The notes under the pieces were generated by a model. That model was not told where the DNA came from, made no database searches, and worked only from the letters and a program-made list of their open reading frames with translations. From NCBI RefSeq assembly GCF_003334785.1, contig NZ_QOWV01000013.1: a DNA stretch of 64,000 nt; one strand, 5' to 3'. The translations under genes were made by a program, and so were the position numbers. This stretch comes from Escherichia coli (GTDB taxonomy: Bacteria; Pseudomonadota; Gammaproteobacteria; Enterobacterales; Enterobacteriaceae). Of the stretch, positions 2,738 through 9,526 are shown one piece after another (within the stretch, counting starts at the first letter, position 1; the number at the start of each line of letters is the position of its first letter).

Positions 2738-2977
2738 TGTAAAGCATCCACAATAGAAGAAGGATGCCGCAGGTTTCATCAATATTACGCGATGATGAGA
2801 ACCAGATGCGACGTTGGCCGGCAGGTCTTCGGGCTTGGAGGGGTATCTAAGATACTAAGAGATGATGACTTCCCACCGAATGGCAGTGTCCGCATAACGC
2901 AATCATCGCACCTTTCCTTACCGCTGCGCGTCAGCTCCAGATTCGCACTGGATTCCCTATTAACTCACAGGACCGGC
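2738..2977 (-). promoter_or_regulatory. btuB 5' leader containing the adenosylcobalamin (B12) riboswitch
   Basis: Minus-strand sequence begins GCCGGUCCUGUGAGUUAAUAGGGAAUCCAGUGCGAAUCUGGAGCUGACGCGCAGCGGUAAGGAAAGGUGCGAUGAUUGCGUUAUGCGGACACUGCCAUUCGGUGGGAAGUCAUCAUCUCUUAG.., which I recognise as the E. coli btuB leader, about 240 nt upstream of the btuB ATG. Confidence 0.85.
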
Positions 2978-3105
2978 AAGTGGATGCTACAGGTTGTAAC
3001 AAGTTACTGTCCAGACGTAGCTCACAAATAGGAATTCATCAAGATCTGGACATCTGATGAGCAATCCCTACAATCGCCGCGTACTTTAATTTTTCAGGAT
3101 ACATC

Positions 3106-4206
3106 ATGACCCCCGAACACCTTCCAACAGAACAGTATGAAGCGCAGTTAGCCGAAAAAGTGGTACGTTTGCAAAGTATGATGGCACCGTTTTCTGACCT
3201 GGTTCCGGAAGTGTTTCGCTCGCCGGTCAGTCATTACCGGATGCGCGCGGAGTTCCGCATCTGGCACGATGGCGATGACCTGTATCACATCATTTTCGAT
3301 CAACAAACCAAAAGCCGCATCCGCGTGGATAGCTTCCCCGCCGCCAGTGAACTTATCAACCAGTTGATGACGGCGATGATTGCGGGTGTGCGTAATAATC
3401 CCGTTCTGCGCCACAAGTTGTTCCAGATTGATTACCTCACTACGCTGAGTAATCAGGCGGTGGTTTCCCTGCTATACCATAAGAAGCTGGATGATGAGTG
3501 GCGTCAGGAAGCGGAGGCCCTGCGCGATGCACTGCGCGCGCAGAATCTGAATGTGCATCTGATTGGTCGGGCAACGAAAACCAAAATCGAGCTGGATCAG
3601 GATTACATCGATGAACGTCTGCCGGTCGCAGGGAAAGAGATGATCTACCGTCAGGTAGAAAACAGCTTTACCCAGCCGAACGCGGCGATGAATATTCAGA
3701 TGCTGGAATGGGCGCTGGACGTAACCAAAGGCTCAAAAGGCGATTTACTGGAGCTGTACTGCGGCAACGGTAACTTTTCATTAGCGCTGGCGCGTAATTT
3801 TGATCGGGTATTAGCCACCGAAATCGCTAAGCCGTCGGTTGCTGCTGCGCAATACAACATCGCAGCTAACCATATTGATAACGTACAAATTATTCGTATG
3901 GCGGCAGAAGAATTTACTCAGGCGATGAATGGTGTGCGCGAGTTTAACCGCCTGCAAGGGATCGACTTAAAGAGTTATCAGTGCGAAACCATTTTTGTCG
4001 ACCCACCGCGCAGCGGTCTGGACAGTGAAACCGAGAAAATGGTGCAGGCGTATCCGCGTATTTTGTACATCTCCTGTAACCCGGAAACGTTATGCAAGAA
4101 TCTGGAAACATTAAGCCAGACGCACAAGGTCGAACGTCTGGCTCTGTTTGATCAGTTCCCCTACACGCACCATATGGAGTGCGGCGTATTACTGACCGCG
4201 AAGTAA
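3106..4206 (+). CDS. trmA: tRNA (uracil54-C5)-methyltransferase (366 aa)
   Basis: ORF translation [32 protein letters not shown]..; divergent from btuB as in K-12. Confidence 0.95.
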
Positions 4207-4215
4207 AACCCATGC

Positions 4216-4237
4216 CGGATGCGCTAGCATCCGGCAT
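4216..4237. terminator. Perfect palindrome gccggatgcgctagcatccggc between convergent trmA and yijD; likely bidirectional terminator hairpin
   Basis: 22-nt inverted repeat seen directly in the 39-bp trmA/yijD gap. Confidence 0.5.
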
Positions 4238-4245
4238 AATACCGA

Positions 4246-4605
4246 TTACTCAGCAACTTCCTGCTTACGGTTACGCATCTTCGCGCCAATCCAGAACACC
4301 ATAATGACGGAGAGTACTGCCGGGAAGAAGTTAGAGCCGATATCCGGATATTCCGCACGAACTACCGTGCTGTACAGCAGTACGCCGAGAATAAAACAGG
4401 CAGCTGCCAGACCCGGCAAGCCTACCGGCATAGTGCGATTAAGATAACGTTGATGCAGGCAGTAAACCGTCAGCACCAGGGAAATAATCGGGAATACAGA
4501 AAATGGCACAATGGAGCTAAACAGCGCTGCGAAAGTACCATTAATCGATAAGCCAGCAACTAACGCCAGCAGCAGCGTACCTCTATCTTGATTTGCTTGT
4601 TTCAT
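4246..4605 (-). CDS. yijD: Inner membrane protein YijD (119 aa, DUF1422)
   Basis: 119-aa hydrophobic ORF immediately downstream of fabR with 1-nt overlap, as in K-12. Confidence 0.85.
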
Positions 4606-5252
4606 TACTCGTCCTTCACATTTCCCGGAATAATTGCGGTTTTCTCTTGTTCACGGCGATACCAGTAATAAGCCCCTTTCGAAATCATTCGCAGTTGCAG
4701 TACCAGTCGCTCTTCTAATTGCCGACGTTGTTCGACGCCGACGTCCAACGCCTCGGCACCCGCACTGAAGACAATTGTCACCATTGCTTCGGCTTGCGCT
4801 TCAGTAAACGCACGCGGCATATGGTTTTCGAGTTCCAGATAGTCCGCAAGTTCCGCAATGAAGTGCTGAATTTCACGCGCAACGGCGGCACGAAACGCAG
4901 CGGAGGTGCCGGAGCGTTCCCGCAATAATAACCGGAAGGCGTTAGGATTATTACCGATGAACTCCATAAATGTGGAGACCGAGGTGCGGATCACACTCCC
5001 GCCTTTGGCGATACGCTGACGCGCCTGGCGCATGAGTTGGCGTAGCATTAAACCGCTCTCATCAACCATGGTCAGACCCAGTTCGTCTACGTCGCGGAAA
5101 TGCCGATAAAAAGAGGTGGGAGCAATGCCCGCTTCACGCGCCACTTCACGCAAACTCAGGCTGGCGAAGCTGCGTTCAGCACTTAATTGGCTAAATGCGG
5201 CTTCCACCAGCGAACGGCGGGTTTTTTCTTTTTGTTGCGCTCTTACGCCCAT
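4605..5252 (-). CDS. fabR: TetR-family repressor of unsaturated fatty acid biosynthesis (215 aa; longer 234/247-aa in-frame starts exist upstream)
   Basis: ORF contains [52 protein letters not shown] (TetR HTH). Confidence 0.88.
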
Positions 5253-5585: not shown

Positions 5586-6986
5586 ATGCCACATTCCTAC
5601 GATTACGATGCCATAGTAATAGGTTCCGGCCCCGGCGGCGAAGGCGCTGCAATGGGCCTGGTTAAGCAAGGTGCGCGCGTCGCAGTTATCGAGCGTTATC
5701 AAAATGTTGGCGGCGGTTGCACCCACTGGGGCACCATCCCGTCGAAAGCTCTCCGTCACGCCGTCAGCCGCATTATAGAATTCAATCAAAACCCACTTTA
5801 CAGCGACCATTCCCGACTGCTCCGCTCTTCTTTTGCCGATATCCTTAACCATGCCGATAACGTGATTAATCAACAAACGCGCATGCGTCAGGGATTTTAC
5901 GAACGTAATCACTGTGAAATATTGCAGGGAAACGCTCGCTTTGTTGACGAGCATACGTTGGCGCTGGATTGCCCGGACGGCAGCGTTGAAACACTAACCG
6001 CTGAAAAATTTGTTATTGCCTGCGGCTCTCGTCCATATCATCCAACAGATGTTGATTTCACCCATCCACGCATTTACGACAGCGACTCAATTCTCAGCAT
6101 GCACCACGAACCGCGCCATGTACTTATCTATGGTGCTGGAGTGATCGGCTGTGAATATGCGTCGATCTTCCGCGGTATGGATGTAAAAGTGGATCTGATC
6201 AACACCCGCGATCGCCTGCTGGCATTTCTCGATCAAGAGATGTCAGATTCTCTCTCCTATCACTTCTGGAACAGTGGCGTAGTGATTCGTCACAACGAAG
6301 AGTACGAGAAGATCGAAGGCTGTGACGATGGTGTGATCATGCATCTGAAGTCGGGTAAAAAACTGAAAGCTGACTGCCTGCTCTATGCCAACGGTCGCAC
6401 CGGTAATACCGATTCGCTGGCGTTACAGAACATTGGGCTAGAAACTGACAGCCGCGGACAGCTGAAGGTCAACAGCATGTATCAGACCGCACAGCCACAC
6501 GTTTACGCGGTGGGCGACGTGATTGGTTATCCGAGCCTGGCGTCGGCGGCCTATGACCAGGGGCGCATTGCCGCGCAGGCGCTGGTAAAAGGCGAAGCCA
6601 CCGCACATCTGATTGAAGATATCCCTACCGGTATTTACACCATCCCGGAAATCAGCTCTGTGGGCAAAACCGAACAGCAGCTGACCGCAATGAAAGTGCC
6701 ATATGAAGTGGGCCGCGCCCAGTTTAAACATCTGGCACGCGCACAAATCGTCGGCATGAACGTGGGCACGCTGAAAATTTTGTTCCATCGGGAAACAAAA
6801 GAGATTCTGGGTATTCACTGCTTTGGCGAGCGCGCTGCCGAAATTATTCATATCGGTCAGGCGATTATGGAACAGAAAGGTGGCGGCAACACTATTGAGT
6901 ACTTCGTCAACACCACCTTTAACTACCCGACGATGGCGGAAGCCTATCGGGTAGCTGCGTTAAACGGTTTAAACCGCCTGTTTTAA
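5586..6986 (+). CDS. sthA: Soluble pyridine nucleotide transhydrogenase (466 aa)
   Basis: [25 protein letters not shown].. FAD/NAD Rossmann motif, 466 aa; 3' end overlaps oxyR 3' end by 18 nt. Confidence 0.95.
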
Positions 6987-7886
6987 AACTTTATCGAAAT
7001 GGCCATCCATTCTTGCGCGGATGGCCTCTGCCAGCTGCTCATAGCGGCTGCGCAGCGGTGAGCCAGGACGATAAACCAGGCCAATAGTGCGGCGTGGTTC
7101 CGGCTTAATGCACGGCAGATAAACAACCCCATCGCGTTTGCGCTCCGGCGGCACAGCCAGCGCTGGCAGTAAAGTGATCCCGCTACCTGCCGCCACCATG
7201 TTGCGCAGAGTTTCCAGGCTGGTCGCGCGGAAGTGTGTATCTTCATCCGCCCCGGCTTCAAAACAGAAACCCATTGCCTGATCGCGCAAACAGTGACCAT
7301 CTTCCAGCATCAGCAGTTTTTCCCCTGCCAGATCGGCCATCGGTACGCATTCGCGGTTCGCCCACGGGTGATCTTCATAGATAGCCAGCAACATTGGCTC
7401 ATCAAACAACGGCACTTCAATGAATGCTTCGCTCTCTTTCACCAGCGCGAGGATCACGCAATCGAGTTTGCCGCTGTCCAGTTGCGCCAGTAACTGGTGG
7501 GTCTGTGCTTCATGCAGATACATTTCCAGCTTTGGAAAGGTCTGGTGCAGCATAGGGATAATATGCGGTAGCAGGTACGGTCCAACTGTGGGAATCAAAC
7601 CAATGTGCAGCGGTCCGGACATCGTCTCGCCCTGCTGGCTTGCCATCTCTTTAAGGACTTTCACCTCACGCAGCACGGTACGCGCCTGATCCACCAGCAG
7701 CATTCCCGCCTGGGTGAACAACACTTTACGGCTGGTCCGCTCCAGCAACATCACGCCCAGCTCATCTTCCAGCTTACGAATTTGCCCGCTAAGCGTCGGC
7801 TGGCTAACGTGGCAGGAATCTGCCGCACGCCGAAAATGGCGGTGTTCAGCCAATGCCACCAGGTACTCAAGATCACGAATATTCAT
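6969..7886 (-). CDS. oxyR: LysR-family hydrogen peroxide-responsive regulator OxyR (305 aa)
   Basis: ORF contains [44 protein letters not shown]; annotated start internal to the 315-aa ORF. Confidence 0.95.
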
Positions 7887-7981
7887 TATCCATCCTCCAT
7901 CGCCACGATAGTTCATGGCGATAGGTAGAATAGCAATGAACGATTATCCCTATCAAGCATTCTGACTGATAATTGCTCACA

Positions 7982-8094
7982 GAAACGGAGCGGCACCTCT
8001 TTTAACCCTTGAAGTCACTGCCCGTTTCGAGAGTTTCTCAACTCGAATAACTAAAGCCAACGTGAACTTTTGCGGATCTCCAGGATCCGCTTTT
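7982..8094 (+). ncRNA. oxyS: OxyS small regulatory RNA (about 109 nt) with intrinsic terminator
   Basis: Sequence GAAACGGAGCGGCACCTCTTTTAACCCTTGAAGTCACTGCCCGTTTCGAGAGTTTCTCAACTCGAATAACTAAAGCCAACGTGAACTTTTGCGGATCTCCAGGATCCGC followed by a T8 run; divergent from oxyR. Confidence 0.9.
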
Positions 8095-8152
8095 TTTTGC
8101 CATAAAAAAGCCCGGCGATAAGCCAGGCTCAAATTTATACATATAAATGTTC

Positions 8153-9526
8153 TTACCCTAACCGAGCCTGCGCAAAAGCAATCGCCTGCGCCACCTGCTG
8201 CGGTGAGACGCCGCCTTTTGCCGCACGCTTGTCGAGGCACGATTGCAGCGACAGAATCGGATAGACATCTTCGTCAATCACCTGACTGAATTTCTGCAAC
8301 TCACTGAGCGGCAGATCTTCCAGCGGTTTGCCCTGACGAATGGCTTCCACCACCGCTTCACCAACAATATGGTGCGCCTCGCGGAACGGTACGCCTTTCG
8401 CCACCAGATAATCCGCCAGTTCGGTGGCGTTGGCGTAACCCTGCTGAGCCGCTTCCTGGCAACGTGGACGTTTCACCTGAATGCCGTCCAGCACCAGCGC
8501 CGCCATATGCAGGCAGTCCAGCCAGGTATCGAGCGCGTCGAACAGACCTTCTTTGTCTTCCTGCATATCTTTGTTGTAAGCCAGCGGCAAACCTTTCAGC
8601 GTCATCATCATGCCGGTTAACGCCCCCTGCACCCGGCCGCATTTACCGCGAATCAGCTCCAGCGCATCCGGGTTTTTCTTCTGCGGCATTAATGATGAAC
8701 CGGAAGTCACGCGGTCAGAAAGCTCCACAAACCCCGCTTCGCCGGTGTTAAAGAAAATCAGATCTTCAGCAAAACGCGACAGATGCACCATGCCGATAGC
8801 GGCAGCAGAAAGCAGTTCCAACACATGGTCACGGTCAGAAACGCTGTCGAGACTGTTACGGGTCGCCGAAGCAAAGCCCAGCCAGCCTGCTAACTGTTCA
8901 CGGTCGATTTCATAGGCCGTTCCCGCCAGCGCGCCACAGCCTAGCGGGCTGACATCCAGACGCTTAAGCGCATCCTGCAAACGGCTTTCATCACGCGCCA
9001 GCATCTCAACATAGGCCAGGCACCAGTGCGCGAACGTCACCGGCTGGGCGCGTTGCAGGTGAGTGTAACCTGGCATTACCGCGTCCTGATTGTTTTGTGC
9101 GGTTTCCACCAGCGCCGATTGCAGCTGCCGGTTAGCCGTCAGTAACTCGCTAACGGTATCTTTGCACCACAGTTTCAGGTCAGTCGCTACCTGATCATTA
9201 CGGCTACGCCCGGTATGCAGCTTTTTGCCTAACTGGCCCACTTTGTCGATCAGTTTGCCTTCCACCCAGCTATGGATATCTTCGGCGTCGCTTTCAAGGA
9301 TTTGTTGTGGCCTGGCGCGAACATCTTCCAGCAACACGTTCAGCGCCTCTTCCAGTTGCGCCTGCTCTTCTGCGGTTAACACGCCTACCGTGACCAGGGC
9401 TTTGGACCAGGCCACAGAGCCAACAATATCCTGCTCCGCCAGACGGTAATCAAAGCGCAGTGAGTCGTTGAATTGTTTGAACCGTTGATCTGCTGCCTGG
9501 GTAAAACGCCCGCCCCAAAGTGCCAT
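8153..9526 (-). CDS. argH: Argininosuccinate lyase (457 aa)
   Basis: [37 protein letters not shown].., 457 aa; last gene of argCBH. Confidence 0.95.

Follow-up and report, generated by a model that had tools for sequence, protein, structure and literature searches.

The convergent genes sthA and oxyR of Escherichia coli share the last 18 nucleotides of their coding sequences. We think it likely that the arrangement is an old tail-to-tail coding overlap rather than a dedicated regulatory device, and that each transcript acquires its 3' end inside the partner's coding sequence through Rho-dependent termination together with trimming that is halted by a protective hairpin. As there is no spacer between the two genes, the 3' end of each has to be formed inside the coding sequence of the other. 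The locus itself is not new. The udhA/oxyR overlap, the idea that it might be regulatory and the transcript ends are already known in print, and an overlap that is present in every annotation carries little weight as a discovery. What the pair offers is a worked example of how, once a spacer is lost, the signals that end and stabilise an mRNA come to be written into the codons of a neighbour. Positions below refer to the window, the whole 64,000-nucleotide stretch of E. coli chromosomal DNA that was analysed.

The gene sthA (also named udhA), encoding the soluble pyridine nucleotide transhydrogenase, occupies 5586..6986 on the + strand (466 amino acids, TAA stop at 6984-6986), and oxyR occupies 6969..7886 on the - strand (305 amino acids, with a TAA stop that is the complement of 6969-6971). 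The true start of oxyR is 7886; the open reading frame caller begins at 7916, where an ATG lies upstream in the same frame. SthA and OxyR both match NCBIfam equivalogs over their full length (NF003585 with 805.7 bits for SthA; NF008361 with 632.9 bits, covering profile positions 1-305 of 305, for OxyR), which marks both as genuine protein-coding genes on opposite strands. The window sequence and the list of reading frames show sthA ending in ...CGC CTG TTT TAA. The segment shared by both strands, TTAAACCGCCTGTTTTAA at 6969..6986, is read as L N R L F followed by the stop in SthA and, on the other strand, as L K Q A V followed by the stop in OxyR. RefSeq annotates the identical 18-nt overlap (sthA 1387-2787 +, oxyR 2770-3687 -), so that sequence, reading frames and annotation agree exactly with the convergent 3' overlap reported in the preliminary description of this DNA.

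The codons of the two genes are aligned antiparallel in phase 123:321, and each TAA stop faces a TTA leucine codon of the partner. Each stop codon thus lies inside the partner's reading frame (at 6969-6971 and 6984-6986), as it likewise does in the 80 species compared below. Two perfect palindromes can be read directly from the sequence, the 12-nt CGGTTTAAACCG at 6965..6976 with the oxyR stop at its centre, and GTTTTAAAAC at 6980..6989 with the sthA stop at its centre.

The overlap is neither a product of chance nor an annotation artefact. The junction, taken as 561 bases, was recovered from 5426 of 5426 complete E. coli genomes at an identity of at least 95%. To look beyond the species we used one genome per species, which gave 80 loci from Enterobacteriaceae whose SthA is at least 91% identical. 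Of these 80 species, 78 have an overlap of 18 nt; in the remaining two, Enterobacter soli and Pluralibacter gergoviae, the overlap is 27 nt and a CAA has replaced the oxyR TAA. Erwinia, Hafnia, Serratia and Edwardsiella, four genera that belong to three families other than Enterobacteriaceae, share the length of 18 nt. In Pectobacterium zantedeschiae the canonical oxyR frame ends in ...ENLSK* and the overlap is 9 nt; there the sthA Leu465 codon has changed from CTG to TTA, a change that is synonymous in sthA, creates a new oxyR stop and removes QAV from OxyR. A 43-nt overlap called in Pectobacterium (locus L086) proved to be an artefact of a frameshifted oxyR and was set aside.

The exception is Dickeya dianthicola, in which sthA and oxyR stand 116 nt apart. 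The spacer holds two diverged copies of the 18-mer, TTAAACCGGTTATTTTGA at the sthA end and TTAAGCCGACTGTTTCGA at the oxyR end, each agreeing with the E. coli sequence at 14 of 18 positions. It also contains tandem duplications, one of which folds, just 3' of sthA, into a hairpin of 11 bp with a U run behind it. Judged from these sequence comparisons, the overlap is ancestral for at least five Enterobacterales families, with Morganellaceae, Budviciaceae and Vibrionaceae lying outside the sample, and Dickeya has undone it through duplication of the 18-mer. Among cluster representatives beyond Enterobacterales the search gave no homologue above 59% identity, and the single genomic context examined among them had a different neighbour. 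Azotobacter and Pseudomonas lack the udhA/oxyR arrangement (Partipilo et al., 2022, J Biol Chem, PMC9460512). Since the Dickeya genes are 116 nt apart and the arrangement is absent from Azotobacter and Pseudomonas, coupling of sthA to oxyR is not obligatory.

The comparison points to SthA as the protein that dictates the 18 bases. The C-terminal end of SthA is invariant in 117 of 120 homologues, including that of Dickeya, where there is no overlap, and its NGLNRL motif is still present in homologues at 45-59% identity. On the OxyR side, similarity to solved OxyR structures from other phyla ends at residues 289-297. Residues 299-300, directly before the overlap, vary freely across the 80 species, and the LKQAV that follows is nearly fixed. 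The OxyR tail is most readily understood as an extension under no constraint of its own, which takes its sequence from the antisense of the constrained SthA end; the OxyR frame would run into the antisense of the sthA codons until it meets Leu462 TTA, which it reads as TAA. The stop leaves its own mark on sthA. In the species alignment the Leu462 codon is restricted to TTA (or CTA, rarely CTG) because it lies opposite the oxyR stop, and Leu459 uses all six leucine codons. In such an arrangement one protein's tail can be merely the antisense reading of the other's conserved end.

The position at which sthA transcripts end is available from published Term-seq data, in which MG1655 4159345(-) is catalogued as a 3' end of the type 'primary sthA / antisense oxyR' (Adams et al., 2021, eLife, PMC7815308, Supplementary file 1). 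This end is supported by 78,428 reads in LB at OD 0.4 and by 54,987 reads in LB at OD 2.0 (PMC7815308). It corresponds to window position 7031, a mapping that we verified against the 3'-end strings of sthA and oxyS as two independent anchors, and it lies 45 nt beyond the sthA stop and 63 nt into oxyR. With this published dominant end, the sthA 3' UTR occupies 6987..7031 on the + strand, within oxyR codons 286-300.

This short UTR contains a stem-loop, GGCCAUCC-N10-GGAUGGCC at 7001..7026 on the + strand, that we propose both protects and defines the sthA mRNA 3' end. Its free energy is -15.1 kcal/mol, with a z-score of -3.0 against shuffles, and the mapped 3' end falls 5 nt further on. The stem is followed by UCUGC, and the tail, UCUGCCAGC, contains no U-tract. 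The stem-loop lies within oxyR codons 287-296, and its arms encode conserved OxyR residues (EAI and MDGH). A terminator scan of 6300-7700 found no canonical terminator at or just after either stop, its sole match being a weak one inside sthA at 6822-6842; on the strength of this negative scan we rejected the idea that the junction holds a canonical terminator, whether intrinsic or bidirectional. The preliminary description had stated that no intergenic terminator can exist here. That holds trivially, there being no intergenic DNA, but signals for 3'-end formation do exist, embedded in the partner coding sequences. For sthA this is the stem-loop at 7001-7026, and the published bicyclomycin scores point to termination by Rho on both strands.

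Of the 80 species, 77 retain the stem (median free energy -15.1 kcal/mol), and the loop varies freely. In the stem alignment 97.1% of cells are paired, and compensatory double changes occur at three of the eight pairs. One of these, A-U to G-C in nine species, combines a synonymous change at D294 with an I289V replacement in OxyR; the others are G-C to A-U in two species and C-G to U-A in one. Where D294 has changed from GAT to GAC without a partner change, as at loci L023 and L069, a G·U wobble results. None of 500 shuffles matched the covariation score, and controls in which the stem was slid along the alignment fell to 19-50% paired. When the Pseudocitrobacter clade (three species) and two further loci (L048 and L079) are left aside, single-sided changes in the stem are all G·U on the + strand, with no A·C; the eight + strand wobbles all fall outside the clade whose hairpin has decayed. 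Because the single-sided changes take this form, the alignment points to selection acting on the sthA-sense RNA. Protein constraint contributes to conservation of the hairpin arms as well, given that they encode conserved OxyR residues. In other families, hairpins after the sthA stop were not homologous to that at 7001-7026 and were not significant against shuffles. An Rfam search of 6500-8300 at E-values up to 1 returned OxyS (7982-8091) only, and no family at the junction. In a literature search for a small RNA derived from the sthA 3' UTR, sthA appeared only as a target of Spot 42, at its 5' end.

Synonymous variation is suppressed on both sides of the junction. Measured as normalised synonymous codon entropy across species, the last 46 codons of sthA score 0.41, the lowest of 421 windows (gene mean 0.63, minimum elsewhere 0.57), and the last 30 codons of oxyR score 0.35, the lowest of 276 windows (mean 0.59, minimum elsewhere 0.52). 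The drop persists beyond the 18 shared bases, to 0.44 for sthA codons 421-460 (p < 5e-5, codon shuffle) and 0.43 for oxyR codons 276-299 (p = 0.0015). The constrained stretch runs roughly from 6846 to 7061, which is where the two embedded 3' UTRs lie. Some of this constraint may reflect selection for particular codons where the proteins are very conserved.

A structure conservation index, calculated in 120-nt windows over the whole 2.3 kb and both strands for 37 species, singles out the same place. On the + strand the index peaks at 0.74 at 6936-7055. On the - strand it reaches 0.73-0.74 at 6816-6965, the top - strand values of the scan, against 0.35-0.41 for the + strand there; elsewhere in sthA the - strand index is at most 0.34 (mostly 0.04-0.3). 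It is at 6816-6965 that the antisense index most clearly exceeds the sense index in sthA. The index therefore peaks at the junction, each time on the strand that suits the UTR in question.

For oxyR, RNAalifold predicts a structured 3' UTR at 6859..6979 on the - strand, inside sthA codons about 425-464. The predicted - strand helices pair 6946-6950 with 6927-6931, 6911-6920 with 6876-6885 plus extensions and, as the outer helix, 6973-6979 with 6859-6865. In this structure 99.3% of alignment cells are paired, a figure derived from and counted on one and the same alignment. The variation is one-sided and consists of wobble-compatible transitions; compensatory changes were absent from the alignment, and the shuffle control was uninformative. 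The conserved oxyR 3' UTR structure is accordingly a prediction, for which the strand asymmetry of the index speaks. The Term-seq tables list no oxyR 3' end (PMC7815308), and the SMRT-Cappable-seq supplements name neither sthA nor oxyR. From the low-resolution bicyclomycin score considered next, together with the predicted structure, we infer that oxyR transcripts probably end inside sthA, at about the far side of this segment.

In the bicyclomycin experiment of the same study (Adams et al., 2021, PMC7815308, Supplementary file 2), Rho-dependent regions were recorded on both strands. One peaks at window position 6867 on the - strand, which is oxyR-sense and antisense to sthA (MG1655 4159509(+), Rho score 5.10, p = 3e-16; PMC7815308). 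The other peaks at 7361 on the + strand, which is sthA-sense and antisense to oxyR (MG1655 4159015(-), Rho score 5.81, p = 6e-31; PMC7815308); the 800-nt downstream counting window of this second score contains oxyS (7982-8091), and the score could be too high if bicyclomycin induces that gene. In base composition, the - strand has a C/G ratio of 1.5 at 6811-6888; on the + strand the ratio is about 1.0 directly after the stem and reaches 1.56-1.8 only at 7227-7344. These ratios are compatible with rut sites and do not decide the matter.

Taken together, we envisage that RNA polymerase passes each stop codon and yields an untranslated RNA that is antisense to the partner. Beyond its stop, the sthA RNA would fold into the conserved GC-rich stem-loop at 7001-7026, leaving a stable end at 7031. 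The most likely route to this end would be Rho termination downstream of sthA followed by 3'-to-5' exonuclease trimming back to the hairpin; we favour this route because the stem-loop has no U-tract and the published score suggests that further read-through is sensitive to bicyclomycin. On the other strand, oxyR transcripts would enter sthA for about 100 nt, through the conserved structured segment, and be stopped by Rho near 6867. Rho would thus act within about 100-400 nt of the stops, with exonucleases trimming to protective structures. The trimming step at the sthA 3' end is suggested by the likeness of this end to a known class. Steady-state ends of Rho-dependent transcripts have been found to lie precisely just past stable stem-loops without a U-tract, which shield them from PNPase and RNase II (Dar and Sorek, 2018, PMC6061677), and the sthA 3' end appears to fit this class of protective stem-loops.

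Complementarity between the two mature mRNAs extends over at least 63 nt (6969-7031), and its probable length is about 170 nt (about 6860-7031). The preliminary description had proposed that the sthA and oxyR mRNAs are antisense to each other at their 3' ends. This is logically forced, since each mRNA must include its own stop codon, and it is borne out by the sthA end at 7031, by the Rho region at 6867 and by the listing of the pair in ExcludonFinder. Transcript ends falling short of the overlap on both strands would have told against it; Term-seq instead puts the sthA end 63 nt into oxyR. ExcludonFinder reports oxyR-sthA among 165 convergent transcript overlaps found in at least half of 58 MG1655 transcriptomes (NAR, 2025, PMC12288877). 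In these published data sthA and oxyR are neighbours on opposite strands with overlapping transcripts, which is one feature of a convergent excludon. The further proposal of the preliminary description, that two redox genes are coupled here by possible transcriptional interference, is speculation and is not specific to this pair.

An alternative is that the hairpin at 7001-7026 acts as an intrinsic terminator of a non-canonical kind, that RNA polymerase lets the sthA transcript go at about 7031 free of Rho, and that the bicyclomycin signal downstream is unrelated, for example a reflection of oxyS. In its favour are a very abundant and precise 3' end 5 nt past a hairpin of about -15 kcal/mol and the confounding of the Rho-score window by oxyS. 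We nevertheless regard this as rather unlikely: the tail UCUGCCAGC offers no U-tract after the stem, the terminator scan is negative there, and the signature is exactly that of the Rho-dependent, exonuclease-trimmed ends of Dar and Sorek (PMC6061677). A more sweeping objection is that no selection acts on RNA here, and that hairpin conservation, low synonymous diversity and a high structure index are all by-products of protein and codon constraint in two C-terminal regions. The arms do encode conserved OxyR residues, the C-terminal domain of SthA is invariant as protein, and the - strand structure lacks compensatory changes. Against it stand three stem pairs with compensatory double changes, one of them joining a synonymous D294 change to I289V in nine species. 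Nor does it sit well with single-sided changes that, outside the Pseudocitrobacter clade, L048 and L079, are always sthA-sense G·U and never A·C, or with a structure conservation index whose higher value switches to the antisense strand only beside the junction. We therefore hold it to be distinctly improbable that RNA-level selection is absent.

The preferred reading, an old overlap with embedded 3'-end signals and no dedicated regulatory role, has also to be set against a functional convergent excludon, in which RNase III acting on the duplex, or colliding polymerases, would make sthA and oxyR antagonise each other and so link the peroxide response with NAD(P)H balance. Membership of oxyR-sthA in the ExcludonFinder core set, the transcript overlap of at least 63 nt, retention of the arrangement across five Enterobacterales families and the fact that the idea has been raised in print (PMC9460512) all lend it some appeal. 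Yet our literature search brought up no expression or RNase III result for the pair; a full-text search on RNase III, double-stranded RNA, antisense and convergent transcripts together with oxyR returned nothing specific to it. Some 75% of convergent operons overlap likewise (PMC4161252), Rho appears to cut both read-throughs within about 100-400 nt, and Dickeya, which has placed 116 nt and a terminator-like hairpin between the two genes, has retained both. A simpler reason for the persistence of the overlap is that two frames are hard to part without a duplication. On this balance we find a functional excludon unlikely. If expression of either gene influences the other, we expect the influence to be small; a large regulatory effect is unlikely because 276 of 370 convergent operons are alike in this respect, Rho appears to limit both read-throughs, the Dickeya genes are separate, and Azotobacter and Pseudomonas lack the arrangement.

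A stronger version would make the 3' regions of about 170 nt, perfectly complementary and conserved in structure, a selected post-transcriptional link, through which the level of sthA, as set by carbon source, Spot 42 and ArcA, alters the 3' integrity of oxyR mRNA and the level of OxyR. We consider this very improbable. Were it true, duplex formation, RNase III cleavage or head-on polymerases would set the peroxide response according to the NADPH/NADH state, and the synonymous constraint on both sides would be the trace of an interaction between the mRNAs that goes beyond 3'-end formation. On the reading that we prefer, the embedded signals have left their traces in covarying stem pairs, in suppressed synonymous change and in a rare Leu codon retained as the partner's stop. 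There is a practical side to this as well, in that deletion or recoding of the 3' end of either gene alters the coding sequence or the mRNA 3' end of the other.

The locus has been described before. Partipilo et al. (2022, PMC9460512) noted that the udhA 3' end overlaps the oxyR 3' end and that this 'might indicate some transcriptional regulation'. Theirs is the same locus, the same observation and the same speculation, with the overlap given as 12 nt, stops excluded, versus 18 nt here. The 'excludome' of ExcludonFinder (PMC12288877) likewise lists the same oxyR-sthA locus as a convergent transcript overlap. Neither report (PMC9460512; PMC12288877) analyses the structure of the 3' ends, conservation beyond E. 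coli or evolutionary origin, all of which are treated here. What we add is the fit of the sthA end to a known class, the covarying stem-loop in oxyR codons 287-296, the suppressed synonymous change, the antisense OxyR tail and the resolution of the overlap in Dickeya; these are details within known categories.

Those categories accommodate most of what is seen at the junction. As in the class of Dar and Sorek (PMC6061677), the sthA transcript has a precise 3' end a few nucleotides after a stable stem-loop and no U-tract; the published score, which oxyS could inflate, suggests bicyclomycin-sensitive read-through downstream. Its stem-loop is distinctive in being embedded in the coding sequence of a convergent gene and in also encoding OxyR residues 287-296. 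Among convergent E. coli operons, 276 of 370 (about 75%) make complementary 3' ends, with a mean overlap of 286 nt (Conway et al., 2014, PMC4161252). sthA and oxyR resemble convergent operons such as ilvA/ilvY (Sameshima et al., 1989, cited in PMC4161252) in standing tail-to-tail with transcripts that run into each other. In most convergent operons (PMC4161252) the coding sequences are spaced and the overlap arises from leaky terminators, whereas those of sthA and oxyR themselves overlap, so that overlap of their transcripts is obligatory. Among short convergent coding overlaps, of which E. coli has 58 (Lillo and Krakauer, 2007, PMC2174442), phase 123:321 accounts for 33% of those of 5 nt or more (PMC2174442). 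sthA-oxyR is one of these roughly 58, has this typical phase and, like other short convergent overlaps (PMC2174442), fits an origin through a change of stop codon. It differs from generic short overlaps (PMC2174442) in having been kept across at least five Enterobacterales families and resolved, in Dickeya, by way of a duplication.

Both stop codons in the 18-nt segment shared by the convergent 3' ends of sthA and oxyR are the midpoints of perfect palindromes, at 6965-6976 (CGGTTTAAACCG) for oxyR and at 6980-6989 (GTTTTAAAAC) for sthA. The two palindromes may be no more than a consequence of the symmetry with which TAA faces TTA in this overlap phase. At its other end, oxyR as a mechanical open reading frame begins at an in-frame upstream ATG at 7916 (-), giving 315 aa; the annotated start, backed by an NCBIfam profile, is 7886 (-), giving 305 aa.

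The homologous locus of Dickeya dianthicola (L083, 3890-4041) has a 116-nt spacer between sthA and oxyR. The ancestral 18-mer is present there twice, in diverged form, and each gene ends in one of the copies. In D. dianthicola the overlap has thus been resolved through duplication. The spacer also carries an AT-rich 18-nt repeat in about 3.3 copies, and a tandem duplication of ACCGGTTATTTTGATG that yields an 11-bp hairpin and U run 3' of sthA.

In Pectobacterium zantedeschiae (L086), oxyR (3865-4809) is frameshifted near codon 250, its tblastn matches being split over frames -3 and -2, and the 314-aa OxyR and 43-nt overlap as called are therefore artefacts. The canonical oxyR frame gives a C-terminus of ...ENLSK* and an overlap with sthA of 9 nt, which arises from a synonymous CTG to TTA change at sthA Leu465.

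In the three Pseudocitrobacter loci (L027, L031 and L034), 3 nt have been inserted into the part of oxyR that encodes the protein's tail, and the last SthA residue is W, not F. Within their region homologous to 6990-7030, the hairpin at the 3' end of sthA is degenerate, with a free energy of -3 to -6 kcal/mol and mismatches that become G·U if read on the opposite strand.

Divergent from oxyR, the OxyS sRNA gene (7982-8091, +; Rfam RF00035, 139.5 bits) has a published Term-seq 3' end that maps to 8097 (PMC7815308). OxyS shares its strand with sthA and lies within the 800-nt window from which the published Rho score at 7361 was computed (Adams et al., 2021), making it a possible confounder of that score.

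A metagenomic SthA homologue with 59% identity (L088/L089) also has a convergent overlap, of 17 nt (3894-3910), with a different partner, a gene of 783 aa for which no Pfam match was found. The sthA 3' end may be susceptible to such overlaps.
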